Sequence record: OK018184
DNA: 64,000 nucleotides
Source: Shigella phage CT01
Strand: one strand, 5' to 3'
Below, piece by piece: positions 12,868 to 46,007 of this stretch. The notes beneath the pieces were generated by a model that saw nothing but the letters and a program-made list of their open reading frames with translations, had not been told where the DNA came from and made no database searches. The translations under genes and the position numbers were made by a program. Each line of letters begins with the position of its first letter. The stretch's first letter is position 1.

Positions 12868-13110
12868 TTATTCCTTAATTCCTAGTACTTGTTTAAAAGT
12901 CTCGTCGTAATCAAGACTTTGACCTGTTTGTTCTTTATGTTTGTATATAATATCACTTACTTCTGATAGCATATTTTTATATGAACGAGTTAAAGCAGAT
13001 TTAAGCACACTATATCTATCAGGAAATTTACCATGTTCATTATAATAAGCTATTGCTAATTCACGGACTGCCTTTTCAGCAGTCTCCATATATTCTTTAC
13101 GCTTTGTCAT
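12868..13110 (-). CDS. hypothetical protein
   Basis: 80-aa ORF. Confidence 0.45.
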
Positions 13111-13414
13111 TTTCTTCTCGGTTAAATCGGTGTTTACAATGACGACATTTATAACGAAGAATACTAGTTTGCCAATGAATCAATTGAACCTGTTCAGTAC
13201 CACATTTTGGGCAGTTCGGAACATTCTTAGAAGCCCTTTCGCGGCGTTCAACCATAACCATAATGGCATCCCAAGCAGGAGGTTTAAAGTCTAGATCGTC
13301 ATCGCCATGAATCTTTCCACGCATTTCTAGATCGTCTTCTTCACCAGCCATAATAATTTTAATTAGACTGGAATTACTTGAAGCTGCAATATCTTCTAAT
13401 AAGCGCTTTTTCAT
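13097..13414 (-). CDS. zinc-ribbon protein
   Basis: 105 aa with CPKCG...CRHCKH cysteine pairs. Confidence 0.5.
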
Positions 13415-14340
13415 TTCAGTACCTCAATAGCATCACGTAAACCATTTGCTTTTGCATTAAGAGCTTTTAACAATTTGGTATGTTCGGCAATCTGAGCTTC
13501 AACTTCAATCAAACGAGCATTGAGATATTCACGTTCTTCGCTCAGGTTATCAACCTTTTCTACTTTAGATTCTTTTACAACTGGCTTATATGTATTAGGG
13601 TTCTTCAGTTTAATTAGAATGCGTGAACTGTATAACATTGAACCATTATCTTCGGTTTCATCATACATTTCCACTACGTCCATCATCTCCACCATCGTGC
13701 AGAGTTTATAAGACAGCGAACGAATAGTTTTGTTATGCTTATTAATTTCTCTAGCTGTCATGGTGCCGAGATTACGTGAGTAATAATAAGGAACCTGGAT
13801 ATTAATTAATACTGATGAACCACCTGGCTTGTGTGTTACTTCATCAGCAATAACCCAATCCTTAACATGAACTGTATTTGTACGGTCATCGCCTGCGGTA
13901 AATAGTTTGCGAGCATGCTTAAAAAGCATATTCACTTGGTCATTGAATTGACAAGCAAATTTATCAGCAAATTTAGTTTCAGGAATGGTAGATAACCAAT
14001 CAGCCAAATGGGTCTTTTTAACATCGTTAACAATAGTAAATTCAACCAAATCAGTTATAGATGTCTCAGATTTAATAAAGCTCGGCTTCATAAAGTTTTT
14101 AATGTTATCACGAGCTATCACAGAAGATAGTAATCGGGAACGTTTGAACCACTCTAGCAAAGAACCAAGAGAATGTGAATACGCATTTTGTGTATCTTTA
14201 CAAATATGGTTTTCCCATCCAATATAGTCTAAAAAATCACGAAGAATATTATTGATTACTGCTCTATGTCCTATCTGATAATTACGATGTTTAGTAATAA
14301 GACTATCAAAATAATCAATATAATGTTTACGAGTTTTCAT
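13411..14340 (-). CDS. hypothetical protein, member 1 of a four-gene paralog array
   Basis: 309 aa; N-terminal motif RSRLLSSVIARDNIKNF; C-terminal heptad-like coiled coil. Confidence 0.55.
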   Translation of the reverse strand: MKTRKHYIDYFDSLITKHRNYQIGHRAVINNILRDFLDYIGWENHICKDTQNAYSHSLGSLLEWFKRSRLLSSVIARDNIKNFMKPSFIKSETSITDLVEFTIVNDVKKTHLADWLSTIPETKFADKFACQFNDQVNMLFKHARKLFTAGDDRTNTVHVKDWVIADEVTHKPGGSSVLINIQVPYYYSRNLGTMTAREINKHNKTIRSLSYKLCTMVEMMDVVEMYDETEDNGSMLYSSRILIKLKNPNTYKPVVKESKVEKVDNLSEEREYLNARLIEVEAQIAEHTKLLKALNAKANGLRDAIEVLK

Positions 14341-14392
14341 GTTCTTCTCACTTGGTTAATGATTTATACTCCGAGCCATCCTTGGCTTTAAA

Positions 14393-15394
14393 TTACTTAA
14401 TTAACTGTAAAGCTTGTTCAAGACGATCCAGACGATTAACAGATTCTTCCCAAATCCTTTTAGCCTGCTCATATTCTTTCTGCGCTTTATTAGAAATTTC
14501 TAGAACTTCTTTATAAGCCTTTTCTAGTGCAATAACTTCTGGACGAATTTCTACAGGTTCAGGCGAATCATCAAGATTATCCATTAGTTCCTCAAGTGTA
14601 ATTTCTTCTTTAGGAGTATTCACAATTTCATCACATTTTTGTTGGTAAATTTCTTTATCAGTCGGTGAGTACGCACATTTCACTTCACGAAGACTAACTA
14701 CAATTTTATATCCTTCCCAACCGCATATATTCTTAAAAGGATACGTATGAATATTTTCTACTGTTTCCATACAAAGTAATGCGGTTTCTAATTGACGAGT
14801 TATAGTGCTAGCAATTGAGAAAAATTTATTAATATTCCTTTGGTTAGTTTCTGGTGTAAAAAATCCATAATTCACAAAAATAGATACTTTATTTTTATCA
14901 AGTTCATATTCTTTTATGATAATCATATCAGAAGCCAAAGGATGAATTTGACGATAATCGCCATAACATAATTTAGAAGCTGATTTTAGAATCTGTCCTT
15001 TGAAAAGCCTGAAATTACTAATCCAACGACGAGTAAAAATATTCTCAGGGTCTTCTTTATTATTAAGATGATAAGAATTAACATCACCGAACCAATTATA
15101 TCCTACTACATCTTTGGTTCGTTTAATTTCTTTCCCAAAATTACCAAGAATATCCCGATTAACCAAATATGAAAGAAGACGAGACTCTTTAAAGGTTTTC
15201 TTGATAACATCTTTATCTACACGACTAGAAATTTTACGAATTTCATGAATAAATTTAGTAGAAGAAACAATACCTGCATCAACACTATTGAGCCATTGAT
15301 TGATAATAGAAATAACGCTATTTTGACCAAACATCGGTATAGCTTTATCATCAATAACACTATTGAATGATTTGATATATTCGTTACGAGTCAT
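14393..15394 (-). CDS. hypothetical protein, paralog array member 2
   Basis: ATG at 15394 preceded by GAGGAG; motif ESRLLSYLVNRDILGNF; C-terminal coiled coil. Confidence 0.5.
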   Translation of the reverse strand: MTRNEYIKSFNSVIDDKAIPMFGQNSVISIINQWLNSVDAGIVSSTKFIHEIRKISSRVDKDVIKKTFKESRLLSYLVNRDILGNFGKEIKRTKDVVGYNWFGDVNSYHLNNKEDPENIFTRRWISNFRLFKGQILKSASKLCYGDYRQIHPLASDMIIIKEYELDKNKVSIFVNYGFFTPETNQRNINKFFSIASTITRQLETALLCMETVENIHTYPFKNICGWEGYKIVVSLREVKCAYSPTDKEIYQQKCDEIVNTPKEEITLEELMDNLDDSPEPVEIRPEVIALEKAYKEVLEISNKAQKEYEQAKRIWEESVNRLDRLEQALQLIK

Positions 15395-15419
15395 ATTAAT
15401 CTCCTCAGTAGAAAGTAAG

Positions 15420-15455
15420 AACATTATACCACATCCTTGTGGCAAAGTAAACTAG
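15420..15455 (-). promoter_or_regulatory. T4 early-type promoter
   Basis: Minus strand reads GTTTAC, an 18-nt spacer, then TGGTATAAT. Confidence 0.5.
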
Positions 15456-16480
15456 TTCAGTGCATTTAGTGCATTGTTCAGTTTAGAACGTTGCTTTGTC
15501 AGATTTTGAACCCTTGACTGAGCTTGTTCTAACACCTTTTCAGCTTCTAGCACTTCATTGGTCGCTTTAACGAGTTCATCATCTACTGCCTTAAGAGACT
15601 TCTCAATCGCGTCAGCGTGCCATTTTTCTACAGGTTTAAAATTTGAATTTTCAGTAGGAAGAAAACTCACTTTATTAAGTTTACATGCATCTATATTGCT
15701 TGAGCTATACATCCAAAATTTAGGATCGTTTGATGAGTAATTGGATAAATTTAAATTTAAGTTATCTTGCACTTCTTGCTTTTTCTCTTGCGGGACTTCG
15801 TCCTTTCTCAAAAAATCGTATTTAAATGAAACGATCATATCAAGTTCATACGTTGTTGTGTCTAATTTAAATCGTTCAAAACGAGGTAAAATCTTAGATT
15901 GAACAGCAGCAACAACATCCATATACTTAAATGCTTCTGTCAACTGCGATTTAAGGCATTCGCAAATTGAAAGAGAATTTTTTGTATTAGGTTTAAAGCT
16001 AATTCGTGCAGTTCTGTTATTTTCTTTTAATGGTCTTACTTCCATCTGAAGAGTATAACCATCAAATTTCAGGTTCTTTAAGTTAATATCAGAACCTTTC
16101 AATCGACTCGCAGTTGATAAAATTTGCTTTAATTGTCTACGGAACAGAGCAATAAATCTCCATTCAATACGATAATGATTTGGATTGAAAAATCCAGATG
16201 ATAAATCGACCTTACTTTGACCAACGCCTTGAACAAATAGAGGATTTTTATAATCAATAGTTTTACAGAAATCGGTGAGTTGCTCACGAGCAGTCATTTG
16301 TGTAATATACCCCGCTTTACTAAAATTACGCATCCATTCACTGCTATTCGTATACTTAAAGTGATGAATAACACGATTAACTTTATCAGGGTCTAAATTA
16401 TTTTCACACAAAAATGTCATAACATCACGAGTATAGCTGGCATTACGAACCATATCTTCAATTTGAGAACGAGTTTTCAT
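15452..16480 (-). CDS. hypothetical protein, paralog array member 3
   Basis: 342 aa; starts MKTR like member 1; C-terminal coiled coil. Confidence 0.55.
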   Translation of the reverse strand: MKTRSQIEDMVRNASYTRDVMTFLCENNLDPDKVNRVIHHFKYTNSSEWMRNFSKAGYITQMTAREQLTDFCKTIDYKNPLFVQGVGQSKVDLSSGFFNPNHYRIEWRFIALFRRQLKQILSTASRLKGSDINLKNLKFDGYTLQMEVRPLKENNRTARISFKPNTKNSLSICECLKSQLTEAFKYMDVVAAVQSKILPRFERFKLDTTTYELDMIVSFKYDFLRKDEVPQEKKQEVQDNLNLNLSNYSSNDPKFWMYSSSNIDACKLNKVSFLPTENSNFKPVEKWHADAIEKSLKAVDDELVKATNEVLEAEKVLEQAQSRVQNLTKQRSKLNNALNALN

Positions 16481-16488
16481 GGTGTTCC

Positions 16489-17379
16489 TTAAGATTTAAG
16501 TAAATCAACAATTTTAATTAACTTTTCACGCTCAGATTTAGCTTTACTACTCAATCCAGATAGTCTAAAAATTTCATCATCATATTGTTGAATAGAAATA
16601 TTCAGCTCTTCAATCTGCTTATTAAAATAATCAATTTGTTCAGAATGTTTTTCGTTACTACGAACTGGTACAGGTTTTGTAGGCAATGTAGTTGAACTGG
16701 ATTCATCCGGGCGATAAATTAAAATACAACTTGAACCAATAGGGCATTTTGCACCAGATGAATATTCTAATGTTCCAGCTTCTTTTAAAACTTCAAAAGC
16801 TAAACAGAGATGATGTCCCATATTAACATAATCTGTAGAGTGAGCTCTGATGTAATAATCATCTCCACGAATACTAAATTTAAAGCATTTAAGGTCTTCT
16901 GTATTATTGGTCTTAAAAATCATTTGTTTATCTAGACCTTTAGCTAATCGAGCGCCCAATGCTAATAATCGTCGTTGATTTTCCCACAAATCCGCAATCA
17001 TTTGATCGAATGATAATTTCGGCATTAGTCGACCATAAAGGTCATATCCTTTATTATAATTACGAAGAATTTCACTCGCATTAATACGAGACAACGCTCC
17101 AATTTTATTAAGGGCTTTCATAATGCGATTAGATAAACTCATTCCAGACCCATTTGTTCGCTGTAAATGTTTTTCTAATCCAAAGCCAATATCAACTTTA
17201 AACTTATCTAAAATTTCGGCATGAACATCTCTGTCAATAACATTCAAATCCAAAGTTGGGTTAAATCTATGAAAAAATTTATCTGGCTCTCCACGACGAA
17301 ATACAGTCCATTCATTCATCATTTTTTTATTAACTAAAGATTTAATTACTGCATTGACATTATTAATTACCACTGACAT
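16489..17379 (-). CDS. hypothetical protein, paralog array member 4
   Basis: ATG at 17379 preceded by GAGGAAAAT; C-terminal coiled coil. Confidence 0.5.
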   Translation of the reverse strand: MSVVINNVNAVIKSLVNKKMMNEWTVFRRGEPDKFFHRFNPTLDLNVIDRDVHAEILDKFKVDIGFGLEKHLQRTNGSGMSLSNRIMKALNKIGALSRINASEILRNYNKGYDLYGRLMPKLSFDQMIADLWENQRRLLALGARLAKGLDKQMIFKTNNTEDLKCFKFSIRGDDYYIRAHSTDYVNMGHHLCLAFEVLKEAGTLEYSSGAKCPIGSSCILIYRPDESSSTTLPTKPVPVRSNEKHSEQIDYFNKQIEELNISIQQYDDEIFRLSGLSSKAKSEREKLIKIVDLLKS

Positions 17380-17386
17380 ATTTTCC

Positions 17387-17794
17387 TCACTCAATTTCAA
17401 TTTTACTAAATACACAGAATATGATTGAACAGACTACATAAGCACCACACACAGATTGAACTAATACCATCCCAAAGAACCAAACAATATTATCAAACAG
17501 TGTCTGTTTTACGTCGAAAGGACGTAAACTTACAGTAATATTATCACCTTTTTCTATTGAAGAATACATCTCTGGGGAAATATATTCACTAAATCTATAA
17601 CCGTCTTTGAGTTCATATACGGCAATAAACGATAAACTAGACCCTTTTCCTTGTGTTCCTGTAATGGTATTAACTACAGTAACATCATAATCTTTATAAT
17701 GCATATAATCATTAATTGCATAATAACCATATGCAACTACTACACATAAACAACATATCAATAAATTCAATCTTTTAATTATCAACTGTTTCAT
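17387..17794 (-). CDS. hypothetical membrane protein
   Basis: 135 aa with hydrophobic N- and C-terminal segments. Confidence 0.5.
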   Translation of the reverse strand: MKQLIIKRLNLLICCLCVVVAYGYYAINDYMHYKDYDVTVVNTITGTQGKGSSLSFIAVYELKDGYRFSEYISPEMYSSIEKGDNITVSLRPFDVKQTLFDNIVWFFGMVLVQSVCGAYVVCSIIFCVFSKIEIE

Positions 17795-17821: not shown

Positions 17822-17850
17822 CCATTATACCATCCTTGGTATAAAGCGGT
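17822..17850 (-). promoter_or_regulatory. middle-type promoter candidate (MotA-box-like element plus -10)
   Basis: Minus strand reads CGCTTTA about 12 nt upstream of TGGTATAAT. Confidence 0.3.
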
Positions 17851-18377
17851 TATGCGAGTACCGTCTTTAACCGTTCTTCAAACTTCCGAAGAGTATTTTG
17901 GCGTTCAGCTCTTTGCTTTTTGTAAGTTTCAATACGCTCTGAAATGAGAGTGTATCGTTCATTTACTGATTCTTTCATAAAATCAGGAATTTCACGAGAA
18001 GCTTTAATCTCGTCAAATTTATCAATAACAGCTTGCTCTTCAGCAATTAAGTTATCATACATTAAAATATCTTTCTTGATAAACTCAATATCTTCTTGAG
18101 TTACACGAGATAACTTAGATGCTTTATCCTTTTTGTACTGTTCATTAGTATCACGAGACCAGTGTAATGTACGATTTTTATTCGTATTCTTGTAAATTTC
18201 TACAATACCAATCTCATCGATAATAACGATCCAATTCCAACGGGATTTGTAAATTTGTCCTCCATCAACTGTGATTTCACCTCCGATTGAGATGTCGTTA
18301 AAGAACTTGCTTTGTGCTTCAGATTTAAATTTACCATCGTTGTAATTTACCAAGTTGAAAATATCTTTAGCGTTCAT
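17850..18377 (-). CDS. hypothetical protein
   Basis: 175-aa ORF with a charged helical C-terminus. Confidence 0.5.
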   Translation of the reverse strand: MNAKDIFNLVNYNDGKFKSEAQSKFFNDISIGGEITVDGGQIYKSRWNWIVIIDEIGIVEIYKNTNKNRTLHWSRDTNEQYKKDKASKLSRVTQEDIEFIKKDILMYDNLIAEEQAVIDKFDEIKASREIPDFMKESVNERYTLISERIETYKKQRAERQNTLRKFEERLKTVLA

Positions 18378-18752: not shown

Positions 18753-18841
18753 TCACCAGTTTAATTCTAGTTATCTTTTTAATGGCAGTCCATATAATCT
18801 ATTTCTGAACTGCCTTTTTGTCATAGAAGTCCTCTTATGAA

Positions 18842-41571: not shown

Positions 41572-42102
41572 TTAAACTTCTGCTATAATTTTGCCATCTT
41601 TTTCTACTTGAAAATACGTATAAGGAATCGTTGCTGTACATACTAAAGCTGGGTCTGAATCTTCCGTGTAGCTAAATTCTACTTCAGACAGGTCAGAAAC
41701 CCAAGGCTTATAAAAATTTATTGACATCACGATTTCAGTTTTACTGTTATCTAAAATGTAAAGCGTAATGTATTCAGGACCTGTTTTTTGGGCAGTATTT
41801 TCGCCTGTAAGATAGTTACTAGTTCCTAGCATCCATTCATACATTCCTATCCACGACTTAAGCTCTTCATCAACTATAAATCTCACAATGAGTGGGTCGT
41901 ACTCAAATGTAACTCCTGGACGCTGTGCTCGGCCTAGTCCAAACGGCCCAGTCACGGTATCAGTAACAGGTATCCTAATTCCCGGAATAGGAACTGACTG
42001 AGCATTTAAAGTAAAAGCAGATGTAGTATTACTATGTGGTATTGATACTACAAAGTTAGTTGTATTTGCTTGGTTAAAAATTTGTTGTAGTGCTTGCGAC
42101 AT
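41572..42102 (-). CDS. 3: gp3 tail completion / sheath stabilizer
   Basis: 176 aa from the ATG at 42102 preceded by GAGGAA; begins MSQALQQIFNQANTTNF; the track ORF is a 5' extension. Confidence 0.7.
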   Translation of the reverse strand: MSQALQQIFNQANTTNFVVSIPHSNTTSAFTLNAQSVPIPGIRIPVTDTVTGPFGLGRAQRPGVTFEYDPLIVRFIVDEELKSWIGMYEWMLGTSNYLTGENTAQKTGPEYITLYILDNSKTEIVMSINFYKPWVSDLSEVEFSYTEDSDPALVCTATIPYTYFQVEKDGKIIAEV

Positions 42103-42208
42103 ATATTCCTCATAATGCTTTATAAATGTTGGTGGTATAATGGGTCTAAGTCCCTTCCATTCAATTCCAATTAGAACAAACAATAGAAAAGAATGGAAGA
42201 TAATAGAA

Positions 42209-42382
42209 TTAATTTATTAGACTTCTTAAACGAGCAGAAGTCATAAATGGAAATTTTTCTAAAGTTGGCTTTCGCCAATATCTTGGATGACAAGTTGATT
42301 TAAAATCAAGAACAATTTTCTTTGCTTCATCAATAGTGCTAACCCTATCAATTAGTGAATTATAAATTTTTTCATAATTCAT
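42209..42382 (-). CDS. small hypothetical protein
   Basis: 57 codons from an ATG at 42382 that overlaps the gp2 stop (ATGA). Confidence 0.3.
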
Positions 42383-43206
42383 CGTACATTGCTCCAAACT
42401 TTGTTTGCAGAGAAACGTTTTCCTTTGGAGTAGAAGCTTTGGAGTGGCATTAACACAACGTTCGCCCAGTCTTTCGGGGCGATTTCAACAAGGCTACCCA
42501 TAATATTACCGGGTATATATGCCTTAATCATTTGGTCTGCACCCCTAAATCCTTTCACTTGACTCCAATCAATTTTTAATTTCGTTTTATTAGTAATAGT
42601 AGGTGTATTTGAATATTGCTTTAAAAGCTCTTCTAGAAATTGCTGACGAGCTTTAGGTGGAATATAGTGCAAGTTCAATCCGTACATTAAATTATGTTTA
42701 CCTAAACCAAGGTAAATTATCAAAGGAAATTTATCCCAATAAGGAAGAGTTTCTTTGTGTTTAGCGTCGTAAGCAAAAGCATATATTCGTCCCGGCTGCG
42801 GGCGAACAACTTTATGTCCTTTTACCTGTTTAATAGTTTCAGCAAACCACTTTCTGGTTTTATTATTAATTGCTGCGCCTTCATTACGAATTTTATCACG
42901 CAATGTTTGTCTGAATGAATTTATCATAAGCAGTTGTCTTTCTTGCTTATTGAGTTTATTCATTGGTTTTGATTCAAGCTTTTGAATCTTTTCAGCTGTT
43001 TTAATTCCTGAAGCATATTTTGACATTGCCGAAGTAAACGTAGAATATTTAATTCCTTTTTCTTCAGCAAATTGCTTTCCTGTCATTCCTTTTGCTTTGG
43101 CCTTTTTGTATTCAAGACCTATCTGAATCCATTTCTTTTCGTTTAATGATTGCTTAACCTTTGGAACTTGGGGAGTGCTTTCATTAATTATTTGAAAAAT
43201 AGCCAT
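42379..43206 (-). CDS. 2: gp2 DNA end protector
   Basis: 275-aa basic protein between genes 4 and 3 as in T4. Confidence 0.7.
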
Positions 43207-43658
43207 TATGCCCCCTTAAAGCCAAGAGCTCGTAATCCATCTTCTGTTAAAATTCTAAATTTTATTCCACGCTTTTCAGCTAAAGCTTGAGCTGCTTTCC
43301 ATTTGTCAGTATTAACTGAATATGTATAAATTTCATTCATAAATCTTTTCTTCGCTGCAGTTGTTAGATGTGCTGGTTTAATTGGTGGTTGTGTTTCTTT
43401 TTTAGGCTTTATTTCAATAAAAAATTCTTGTCCAGAAGAATCTTTCATCCAAATATCCATGAAGTATCTACGTTTTTTCCCTTCTGCATTACAAAAATAA
43501 GGAATTACTGCTGTTTCACTACCCCATGCAATAATTTCTGGATTTTTATCTAACCATTCAAAAAAGAATTTTTCCCAATTTGATCTATACGTAATTTTTT
43601 TAGGGTCACCTCTATATTTTGATATATTTTTAGGAACCCATTTTCCAGAATATGCCAT
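43206..43658 (-). CDS. 4: gp4 head completion protein
   Basis: 150 aa; adjacent to gp2 and divergent from gp53. Confidence 0.7.
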
Positions 43659-43669
43659 TGGATTCTCCT

Positions 43670-43677
43670 TATAAATA
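43670..43677 (+). promoter_or_regulatory. late promoter TATAAATA for gp53
   Basis: Exact TATAAATA about 29 nt upstream of the gp53 ATG. Confidence 0.55.
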
Positions 43678-43684
43678 GATAATA

Positions 43685-43692
43685 TATTTATA
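43685..43692 (-). promoter_or_regulatory. late promoter TATAAATA for gp4 (divergent)
   Basis: Exact TATAAATA on the minus strand about 27 nt upstream of the gp4 ATG. Confidence 0.5.
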
Positions 43693-43705
43693 AACAGGAG
43701 GGCCC

Positions 43706-44296
43706 ATGCTCTTTACATTTTTTGATCCGATTGAATATGCGGCCAAAACGGTGAATAAAAACGCGCCGACTATTCCTATGACAGATATTTTTAGAAACTA
43801 TAAAGACTATTTTAAACGCGCTCTTGCGGGATACCGTTTACGTACTTATTATATTAAAGGTTCACCACGCCCGGAAGAATTAGCAAATGCTATATATGGA
43901 AATCCACAGTTGTATTGGGTTTTATTGATGTGTAATGATAATTATGATCCGTATTATGGATGGATTACTTCGCAAGAAGCTGCTTATCAAGCATCTATAC
44001 AAAAATACAAAAATGTAGGTGGAGACCAAATAGTATATCATGTGAATGAGAATGGTGAAAAATTTTATAATTTAATATCATACGATGATAATCCATATGT
44101 TTGGTATGACAAAGGCGATAAAGCTAGAAAATATCCTCAATATGAAGGAGCACTTGCTGCGGTCGATACGTATGAAGCTGCTGTTCTTGAAAATGAAAAA
44201 CTTCGTCAAATAAAAATAATAGCAAAATCAGACATCAATTCATTTATGAACGACCTTATACGTATAATGGAGAAATCTTATGGAAATGATAAGTAA
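43706..44296 (+). CDS. 53: gp53 baseplate wedge protein
   Basis: 196 aa, first late gene upstream of gp5. Confidence 0.75.
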   Translation: MLFTFFDPIEYAAKTVNKNAPTIPMTDIFRNYKDYFKRALAGYRLRTYYIKGSPRPEELANAIYGNPQLYWVLLMCNDNYDPYYGWITSQEAAYQASIQKYKNVGGDQIVYHVNENGEKFYNLISYDDNPYVWYDKGDKARKYPQYEGALAAVDTYEAAVLENEKLRQIKIIAKSDINSFMNDLIRIMEKSYGNDK

Positions 44297-46007
44297 TAAC
44301 CTCAATTGGTTTGTTGGTGTTGTTGAAGATAGAATGGACCCATTAAAATTAGGTCGTGTTCGTGTTCGTGTGGTTGGTCTGCATCCACCTCAAAGAGCAC
44401 AAGGTGATGTAATGGGTATTCCAACCGATAAATTGCCATGGATGTCAGTTATTCAACCGATAACTTCTGCAGCAATGTCTGGAATTGGAGGCTCCGTTAC
44501 TGGTCCGGTAGAAGGAACTAGAGTTTATGGTCATTTTTTAGACAAATGGAAAACTAACGGAATTGTTCTTGGCACGTATGGTGGAATAGTTCGCGAAAAG
44601 CCTAATAGACTTGAAGGATTTTCTGACCCGACTGGACAGTATCCTAGACGTCTAGGAAATGATACTAACGTATTAAACCAAGGCGGAGAAGTAGGATATG
44701 ATTCGTCTTCTAATATTATCCAAGATAGTAATTTAGATACTGCGATAAATCCCGATGATAGACCACTATCAGAGATTCCAACTGATGATAATCCAAATAT
44801 GTCAATGGCTGAAATGCTTCGCCGTGATGAAGGATTAAGACTAAAAGTTTATTGGGATACTGAAGGATATCCGACAATTGGTATTGGTCATCTTATCATG
44901 AAGCAGCCAGTTCGTGATATGGCCCAAATTAATAAAGTTTTATCAAAACAGGTTGGTCGTGAAATTACCGGAAATCCAGGTTCTATTACAATGGAAGAAG
45001 CGGTAACTTTATTTGAACGTGATTTAGCTGATATGCAACGTGACATTAAATCACATTCTAAAGTTGGCCCAGTTTGGCAAGCAGTTAATCGTTCTCGTCA
45101 AATGGCATTAGAAAATATGGCATTTCAGATGGGTGTTGGCGGTGTAGCTAAATTTAACACAATGTTAACTGCTATGTTAGCCGGAGATTGGGAAAAAGCA
45201 TATAAAGCTGGTCGTGATTCATTGTGGTATCAACAAACAAAAGGCCGTGCATCTCGTGTTACCATGATTATTCTTACAGGGAATTTGGAATCATACGGTA
45301 TTGAAGTGAAAACACCAGCTAGGTCTTTGTCGGCAATGGCTGCTACTGTAGCAAAGTCTTCTGATCCGGCCGATCCTCCTATTCCGAATGATTCGAGAAT
45401 TTTATTTAAAGAACCTGTTTCTTCATATAAAGGTGAATATCCATATGTTCACACAATGGAAACTGAAAGCGGTCATATTCAGGAATTTGATGATACGCCT
45501 GGACAAGAACGATACAGATTAGTTCATCCGACTGGAACATATGAGGAAGTATCACCGTCAGGAAGAAGAACAAGAAAAACTGTTGATAATTTGTATGATA
45601 TAACAAATGCTGACGGTAATTTTTTGGTAGCCGGCGATAAAAAGACTAACGTCGGTGGATCAGAAATTTACTACAACATGGATAATCGTCTTCACCAAAT
45701 AGATGGAAGCAACACAATATTTGTCCGTGGCGATGAAACTAAGACAGTTGAAGGTAATGGAACTATCCTAGTTAAAGGTAATGTTACTATTGTAGTCGAA
45801 GGTAATGCTGACATTACAGTTAAAGGAGATGCTACCACTTTAGTTGAAGGAAATCAGACTAATACAGTAAATGGAAATCTTTCTTGGAAAGTTGCTGGGA
45901 CAGTTGATTGGGACGTTGGTGGTGATTGGACAGAAAAAATGGCATCTATGAGTTCTATTTCATCTGGTCAATACACAATTGATGGATCGAGGATTGACAT
46001 TGGCTAA
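44280..46007 (+). CDS. 5: gp5 baseplate hub / cell-puncturing protein with lysozyme domain
   Basis: 575 aa; N-terminus MEMISNNLNWFVGVVEDRMDP; internal lysozyme domain AEMLRRDEGLRLKVYWDTEGYPTIGIGHLI homologous to e; C-terminal VEGN repeats. Confidence 0.9.
   Translation: MEMISNNLNWFVGVVEDRMDPLKLGRVRVRVVGLHPPQRAQGDVMGIPTDKLPWMSVIQPITSAAMSGIGGSVTGPVEGTRVYGHFLDKWKTNGIVLGTYGGIVREKPNRLEGFSDPTGQYPRRLGNDTNVLNQGGEVGYDSSSNIIQDSNLDTAINPDDRPLSEIPTDDNPNMSMAEMLRRDEGLRLKVYWDTEGYPTIGIGHLIMKQPVRDMAQINKVLSKQVGREITGNPGSITMEEAVTLFERDLADMQRDIKSHSKVGPVWQAVNRSRQMALENMAFQMGVGGVAKFNTMLTAMLAGDWEKAYKAGRDSLWYQQTKGRASRVTMIILTGNLESYGIEVKTPARSLSAMAATVAKSSDPADPPIPNDSRILFKEPVSSYKGEYPYVHTMETESGHIQEFDDTPGQERYRLVHPTGTYEEVSPSGRRTRKTVDNLYDITNADGNFLVAGDKKTNVGGSEIYYNMDNRLHQIDGSNTIFVRGDETKTVEGNGTILVKGNVTIVVEGNADITVKGDATTLVEGNQTNTVNGNLSWKVAGTVDWDVGGDWTEKMASMSSISSGQYTIDGSRIDIG

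Follow-up and report, generated by a model that had tools for sequence, protein, structure and literature searches.

No lytic phage has been studied better than T4, yet for most of its accessory early genes a function is still lacking. One T4 clone that carries compensatory deletions fails to plate on E. coli ECOR17 owing to the SIR2-domain defence Dsr1 (PMC9391042), and NrdC.5 supplied in trans from a plasmid restored plating of that clone on Dsr1 hosts (PMC9391042; Srikant, Guegler and Laub 2022). The nrdC.5 gene has been described as an early gene. The TPR sensor of Dsr1 is homologous to that of Avs7, according to a 2026 preprint (PMC12803255). In the same work, the major capsid protein was the unique trigger of Dsr1 when phage ZL19 genes were screened for toxicity on co-expression, and sister receptor families were reported to sense other virion proteins, including tail terminators. 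In the literature, we found no report on how NrdC.5 works. Here we analyzed a window of 64,000 nucleotides of Shigella phage CT01 (record OK018184), in which an nrdC.5 orthologue is one of four consecutive genes, nrdC.3 to nrdC.6. We lean, by a small measure, toward reading these genes as a tandem array of anciently diverged paralogs that encode oligomeric inhibitors of host immune proteins.

The window is from a Tequatrovirus, a T4-like coliphage. The 4-kb array region was matched by 656 phage records, with Escherichia phage ECO07P3 as the top match (98.7% identity). The array lies on the minus strand, as do all features of its genes located below, downstream of nrdC, nrdC.1, and nrdC.2 and upstream of nrdC.7 to nrdC.10. 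Comparison of gene order with annotated T4 identified the four open reading frames (ORFs) as counterparts of T4 nrdC.3, nrdC.4, nrdC.5, and nrdC.6. They are non-essential accessory genes in the early, leftward-transcribed nrdC region. Member 1 (13411-14340, 309 amino acids [aa]) is nrdC.3-type by its ORF, its synteny with T4, and its match to phrog_1435 (E = 4e-115); the allele in the window is only 61.6% identical to T4 NrdC.3. Member 2 (14393-15394, 333 aa) is the nrdC.4 orthologue (phrog_1435, E = 4e-168), and NrdC.4 homologues carry PF26897. Member 3 (15452-16480, 342 aa) is the nrdC.5 orthologue. It matched Pfam family DUF7235 (PF23882) over its full length at 398 bits, for a cut-off of 30 (E = 4e-119), whereas members 1, 2, and 4 had no match to this family; it is 95% identical to T4 NrdC.5 and has kept its position between the nrdC.4 and nrdC.6 orthologues. 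Member 4 (16489-17379, 296 aa) is the nrdC.6 orthologue, with a match to phrog_2257 (E = 2e-152) and an intact coiled-coil tail; PF26899 was found on 105 of 105 NrdC.6 homologues. The start of member 2 was placed at ATG 15394, preceded by GAGGAG, and that of member 4 at ATG 17379, preceded by the Shine-Dalgarno sequence GAGGAAA. Both agree with annotations in related phages. An earlier note on this DNA had described four consecutive genes, and four minus-strand ORFs of 296 to 342 aa were found at 13411-17379. The note's end coordinate of 17415, corrected here, and its 350-aa second member arose from a longest-ORF start rule.

On sequence comparison, members 1 and 2 are clearly paralogs. They share 25% identity over 275 aa by BLASTP (E = 5e-8) and belong to one PHROG (phrog_1435). 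Family profiles trimmed of the coiled coil (C3 to C6 for NrdC.3 to NrdC.6) were aligned with hhalign, and null scores were obtained from 200 column shuffles per pair. C3 and C4 aligned with a probability of 98% (P = 2e-13). The score of C4 with C5 was 31.3 compared to a null of 14.7 ± 2.5 and was reached by none of the 200 shuffles, and that of C4 with C6 was 29.6 and was reached by one. The C34 profile scored 32.0 with C5 (0 of 200 shuffles) and 22.2 with C6 (2 of 200). No DNA-level repeats were found among the paralogs except for the ATGAAAACTCGT start common to members 1 and 3. Because the genes have no DNA-level similarity, any duplication must be ancient, and recent duplication or gene conversion is ruled out.

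Two further observations tie NrdC.5 to NrdC.3 and NrdC.4. A 324-aa protein of Klebsiella phage KP182, encoded at the same position, matched C4 (P = 6e-5) and, over the same ~130 columns, also C5 (P = 1.4e-3), with unrelated controls at P >= 0.02. In addition, C3, C4, and C5 have a common start, M(K)TR-x-x-[YF]I. AlphaFold (AF2) models were made independently for two members, NrdC.4 and NrdC.5. The NrdC.4 model had a predicted local distance difference test score (pLDDT) of 83 and a predicted template modelling score of 0.68. Both models consist of a long helix, two strands, a long helix, two strands, a linker, and a long helix, and these elements coincide under the hhalign alignment. A Foldseek comparison of the NrdC.4 model with viral predicted structures gave 18 matches at E <= 1e-3. 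Most were proteins of 280-374 aa and two were near-identical NrdC.4 fragments of ~155 aa; five were nameless, and the named ones were all from T4-like phages. Among the matches was the annotated NrdC.6 of phage JS10 (E = 4e-5, probability 1.0). A 308-aa protein of fPS-65, taken from its length alone to be NrdC.3-type, also matched (E = 1.5e-8). The Cronus and PS2 proteins at the top of the NrdC.5-model list were also matched by the NrdC.4 model.

The alternative that survives best holds that true paralogy is limited to members 1 and 2, and that NrdC.5 and NrdC.6 are unrelated proteins of similar layout that are neighbours in a hypervariable accessory region. We consider this unlikely, but several results count in its favor and against our own reading. 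BLASTP gave no match of member 3 or 4 to the other members. The hhalign probabilities for these two were 1-25%, and those of C4-C5 and C4-C6, at 14-25%, are a weak tie of NrdC.5 and NrdC.6 to NrdC.3/4. C5 and C6 were not significantly related to each other (15 of 200 shuffles). A HMMER search of 1.84 billion representative proteins with the C3/C4 profile returned nine matches, all of them NrdC.3/4-type or fragments, and so missed NrdC.5 and NrdC.6; it also reached nothing beyond T4-like phages. Pfam and PHROGs hold NrdC.3 to NrdC.6 as separate families, three when both libraries are considered. The NrdC.5 model was of low confidence (pLDDT 53; 52-82 in the core), the Foldseek template modelling scores were only 0.3-0.5, and the alpha/beta sandwich is a common fold. 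On the other hand, the alignments run collinearly over 141-197 columns and beat the column-shuffle nulls, and the top Foldseek matches are common to both models and are all T4-like phage proteins of 280-374 aa. Common ancestry of all four is the better reading because of the KP182 bridge, the order of elements in the AF2 models, the Foldseek links, and the common N-terminal start. The paralogy claimed in the earlier note is thus secure for the first two members; the other two are probable remote relatives of these, for which sequence by itself is marginal and the structural and bridging evidence carries the case. A four-way superfamily with a common architecture was not found recorded in the libraries or literature searched, in which the genes have long been annotated and one function has been published.

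All four proteins have a common layout, which comprises a helical N-domain with a motif, an alpha/beta core, a flexible low-complexity linker, and a C-terminal heptad helix. The N-domain motif (block i) is FKRSRLLSSVIARDNIKNF in member 1 (aa 65-83; 14092-14148) and FKESRLLSYLVNRDILGNF in member 2 (aa 68-86; 15137-15193), where it falls on helices 61-69 and 72-84 of the AF2 model. Looser forms, placed by hhalign onto block i of NrdC.4, are FSKAGYITQMTAREQLTDF in member 3 (aa 53-71; 16268-16324) and LNKIGALSRINASEILRNY in member 4 (aa 90-108; 17056-17112). The profile alignments superposed the four segments unprompted. The motif was found much as the earlier note had given it, except that the K or E placed before SRLLS is an R in member 1. 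Two more blocks (ii and iii), with the patterns x-x-[IL]L-x-x-[AG][SA][KR]L-x-x-G-x-D and L-x-x-A/M-[FLV]-x-x-[ML]-[DEK]-x-[VA], are collinear with it and similarly spaced in all four members. The core of member 2 (aa 119-235; 14690-15040) consists of a long helix, two strands, a long helix, and two strands, with block ii at aa 133-148 and block iii at aa 198-213. That of member 3 (aa 105-219; 15824-16168) has the same order of elements, with block ii at aa 118-133 and block iii at aa 176-191, and was mapped onto the NrdC.4 core by hhalign.

The region of member 1 that includes block i (aa 30-86; 14092-14250) had a weak match to the N-terminal core-binding (SAM-like) domain of XerD-type tyrosine recombinases (E = 0.003), in which the SRLLS...RD..F helix resembles the recombinase 'ARLLSA.RR.F' helix. 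This NCBIfam match was below threshold (16.8 bits compared to a cut-off of 279) and was not found for the other members. NCBIfam otherwise gave a sub-threshold match of member 3 to the coiled-coil-type PgrA and nothing else. Pfam searches of the four members returned DUF7235 for member 3 only, and PDB sequence searches with the array proteins returned no match and no solved structure.

The coiled-coil C-termini described in the earlier note were present in all four members, with heptad scores above the 95% shuffle threshold. The heptad helices span aa 262-309 of member 1 (13414-13557), aa 285-333 of member 2 (14396-14542), aa 286-342 of member 3 (15455-15625), and aa 243-296 of member 4 (16492-16653). 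Long helices were modelled by AF2 at residues 285-332 of member 2 and 286-341 of member 3. The heptad-register windows above threshold were residues 271-299, 288-317, 286-342, and 246-274 of members 1 to 4, respectively; NrdC.7, NrdC.8, and NrdC.10 were below threshold in the same test. The C-terminal helices alone carried a modest positional signal, in that, for 4 of the 6 pairs, 0-2 of 100 shuffles attained the score. The C-terminal heptad helix of 45-55 residues probably oligomerizes the protein.

In the reference T4 genome (NC_000866; locus L002, 9997-10260), nrdC.6 has a deletion of 1 nucleotide (GCTG-ATATT compared to GCTGAATATT), and the equivalent region of the window is 16489-16640. 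The deletion shifts the frame of the last ~50 codons, so that the coiled-coil helix is lost and the protein is 275 aa instead of 295-296 aa. The helix is still perfectly encoded downstream in the other frame, and the deletion arose either by recent mutation in a laboratory strain or through an error in sequencing. Another length variant is the NrdC.6 of Shigella phage Sf25 (P0121), which has 378 aa and an internal tandem duplication of ~80 residues (IRAHSTDYVNMGHH...QIEEL repeated).

The earlier note held that genes such as these, with variable cores, are typically under diversifying selection. The ratio of nonsynonymous to synonymous substitution rates (dN/dS) was determined across eight Tequatroviruses and in a scan of 30-codon windows. 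The dN/dS was 0.30 for nrdC.3, 0.22 for nrdC.4, 0.20 for nrdC.5, and 0.12 for nrdC.6. The flanking nrdC, nrdC.1, gene 49, nrdC.8, nrdC.9, and nrdC.10 had values of 0.00-0.09, and the other neighbours, nrdC.2 and nrdC.7, had values of 0.21 and 0.26. The excess over the flanking genes, the diverged nrdC.3 alleles, the differences in copy number, the rearranged variants, and the confinement to T4-like phages are together in keeping with accessory genes that behave as in an arms race. No array gene and no 30-codon window had a dN/dS above 1. Since the highest window value was 0.79, positive selection is not demonstrated, which is a further point against our reading. Variable cores were seen between the paralogs but not among orthologues, with the exception of nrdC.3. 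Constraint in nrdC.5 and nrdC.6 is greatest on the alpha/beta core (dN/dS of about 0 over codons 106-180 of NrdC.5), and change is fastest in the N-terminal helices and the linker.

The nrdC.3 gene has deeply diverged alleles (61-99% aa identity, dS 0.58), which fall into classes of >90%, ~75%, and ~62% identity to the window protein. A variable center lies between a conserved N-terminal stretch of 60 aa and a conserved C-terminal end, and mosaic forms exist. This pattern indicates allele replacement by recombination. One mosaic form is P0226, in which the first 75 aa are window-type and the remainder is different. Together, nrdC.2 and nrdC.3 (13097-14340) make up a hypervariable patch of the recombination type, with a dS of about 0.6 compared to 0.08-0.2 in the neighbours; nrdC.2 occurs in forms of 104/105, 122, and 129 aa.

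Copy number differs between genera and also within Mosigvirus. Tequatrovirus has four array members. In Mosigvirus, moha has three (C6-, C5-, and C3-like) and AV116 has two (C6- and C3-like). Jiaodavirus has one recognizable member, the 324-aa KP182 protein, and Tegunavirus has one weak member, gp94 (P = 5e-4 to C6). None was shown for Moonvirus, in which Merlin91 has a similar coiled-coil tail only. As far as sequence matches go, the superfamily is confined to T4-like phages. A metagenome protein of 299 aa, P0119, joins NrdC.5 residues ~146-270 to NrdC.3 residues ~137-309. It is a natural deletion, corresponding to 13411-16045 of the window, in which nrdC.4 was lost and two paralogs were fused out of register.

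Two candidates for additional members were rejected. NrdC.8 (17850-18377, 175 aa) showed no relation by hhalign (P > 0.04) and no significant heptad signal. Both AF2 models weakly matched a 175-aa protein of Klebsiella phage KPV15 in BFVD (E of 1.5e-3 and 4e-3), and NrdC.8 is of the same length and has a helical end. The 262-aa proteins adjoining the array in Merlin, KP182, and fHe-Yen9-01 also showed no relation. A conserved gene of 262-263 aa stands beside an array member in Moonvirus, Jiaodavirus, and Tegunavirus (L004 10835-11623, L005 10847-11635, and L006 11648-12439); its product is without a coiled-coil tail and has no detectable relation to NrdC.3-6.

The anti-defence role that the earlier note had suggested for the array is right for member 3, because this protein is 95% identical to T4 NrdC.5, the product of the published anti-Dsr1 gene. 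Since nrdC.5 is known to disarm Dsr1, a SIR2 NADase, nrdC.3, nrdC.4, and nrdC.6 become candidate counter-defence genes. For members 1, 2, and 4, such a role is plausible on the grounds of paralogy. The genetic interaction between NrdC.5 and Dsr1 and the triggering of Dsr1 by the capsid protein are established. From these, we infer that NrdC.5 would be made early, before the capsid protein appears, and that it would bind Dsr1 directly as an oligomer and keep it from switching on, by the logic described for DSAD1 and DSR2. The three paralogs would act in this way on other host immune proteins. Paralogs aimed at different immune proteins would account for a core fold that is retained in phages whose alleles, copy number, and peripheral segments differ. 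On the other side, the eLife study (PMC9391042) reported plasmid rescue for nrdC.5 alone and for no paralog. About 5% of positions, most of them in the linker (aa 210-280), also differ between the window NrdC.5 and the T4 protein that was tested, and the effect of NrdC.5 on Dsr1 is possibly indirect.

An indirect effect is central to a second alternative, in which all four proteins serve in host takeover or regulation, with, for example, gene expression of the host or phage, or nucleotide or nicotinamide adenine dinucleotide (NAD) metabolism, as the target. Rescue by NrdC.5 could then come about, for example, because capsid protein is delayed or masked or because NAD+ is buffered, rather than through binding to Dsr1. 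The genes are in the early nrdC/nrdD nucleotide-metabolism neighbourhood, the proteins are basic (isoelectric point of 8.9-9.2 for three), and pathways that restore NAD+ counter DSR1 (PMC13464706). The faint recombinase likeness of the member 1 motif region and the lack of a published mechanism for NrdC.5 also leave room for this view. However, Pfam, NCBIfam, and PDB sequence searches identified no enzyme or DNA-binding family, NrdC.5 from a plasmid alone suffices for plating (PMC9391042), and allelic turnover and changes in copy number fit direct targeting of host proteins better than housekeeping. We rate this alternative as rather improbable, somewhat more so than the view that only members 1 and 2 are related.

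A third possibility, to which we give little credence, is that the proteins are decoys. The alpha/beta core would imitate a conserved virion fold, that of tail terminator or completion proteins, and the proteins, made early and oligomerized by the coiled coil, would occupy the sensor domains of pattern-recognition defences (TPR sensors of the Dsr1/Avs type) without activating them. Each paralog or allele might plug a different sensor, Dsr1 in the case of NrdC.5 and Avs-type TPR sensors in the case of the others, a proposal that we hold to be just as doubtful. If decoys were the true explanation, the array would be a diversifying anti-receptor repertoire of the phage. DNA mimicry of the anti-restriction type (Ocr/ArdA-like) was rejected because three of the four proteins are basic.

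Other features of the region were also recorded. Just upstream of member 2, in the gap between members 3 and 2, a consensus scan identified a putative early-type promoter-like site on the minus strand (15423-15451). It has the form GTTTACT-17-TATAAT with TG, a sigma-70 or T4-early type, and matches the consensus at 10 of 12 positions. In the gap between nrdC.9 and nrdC.10 (18753-18841), a homing-endonuclease gene is absent; T4_ev151, T6, and RB68 have a 720-bp segE-like gene there. Rfam identified no RNA families on either strand, and PADLOC gave no meaningful match. The GC skew of the window changes from negative to positive near 43-44 kb (~42000-46000), which likely marks a switch in the predominant direction of transcription.

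With the one characterized gene, nrdC.5, placed in an array with three remote paralogs, three 'hypothetical proteins' become specific candidate inhibitors of other bacterial immune systems. The common scaffold of N-domain, alpha/beta core, and coiled coil offers a basis for mechanistic and structural work. A natural series for mapping specificity is available in the nrdC.3 alleles, in arrays that hold 2-4 copies, and in the frameshift by which laboratory T4 loses a coiled coil. These genes also have a bearing on the prediction of host range for therapeutic T4-like phages.

The closest described system is T4 NrdC.5 itself (DUF7235, PF23882), of which member 3 is the orthologue, in the same length class and at the same gene position; members 1, 2, and 4 are outside DUF7235 and only remotely related to it. 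The tail terminator and completion proteins (lambda gpU, T5 p142, gene transfer agent, and Mu) gave structural scores in the grey zone and no sequence similarity, and we do not claim membership in that group. Those proteins are encoded by late virion genes and are without the N-domain and the coiled coil, whereas the array is in the early nrdC region and has both. DSAD1, the SPbeta-phage inhibitor of the SIR2 defence DSR2, may be similar in the proposed logic only, namely the neutralization of an NADase with a virion-protein sensor. It comes from another phage lineage and acts on another defence protein, and direct binding is established for DSAD1. The dmd-tifA-adfA 'anti-TA' (toxin-antitoxin) island and the ipI/ipII/ipIII loci are alike in that their genes are non-essential, act against one defence each, are readily lost or gained, and shape host range. 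The genes at those loci are unrelated, whereas the neighbours in this array are paralogs of one fold, and the array therefore looks like the duplication and divergence of a single inhibitor scaffold.

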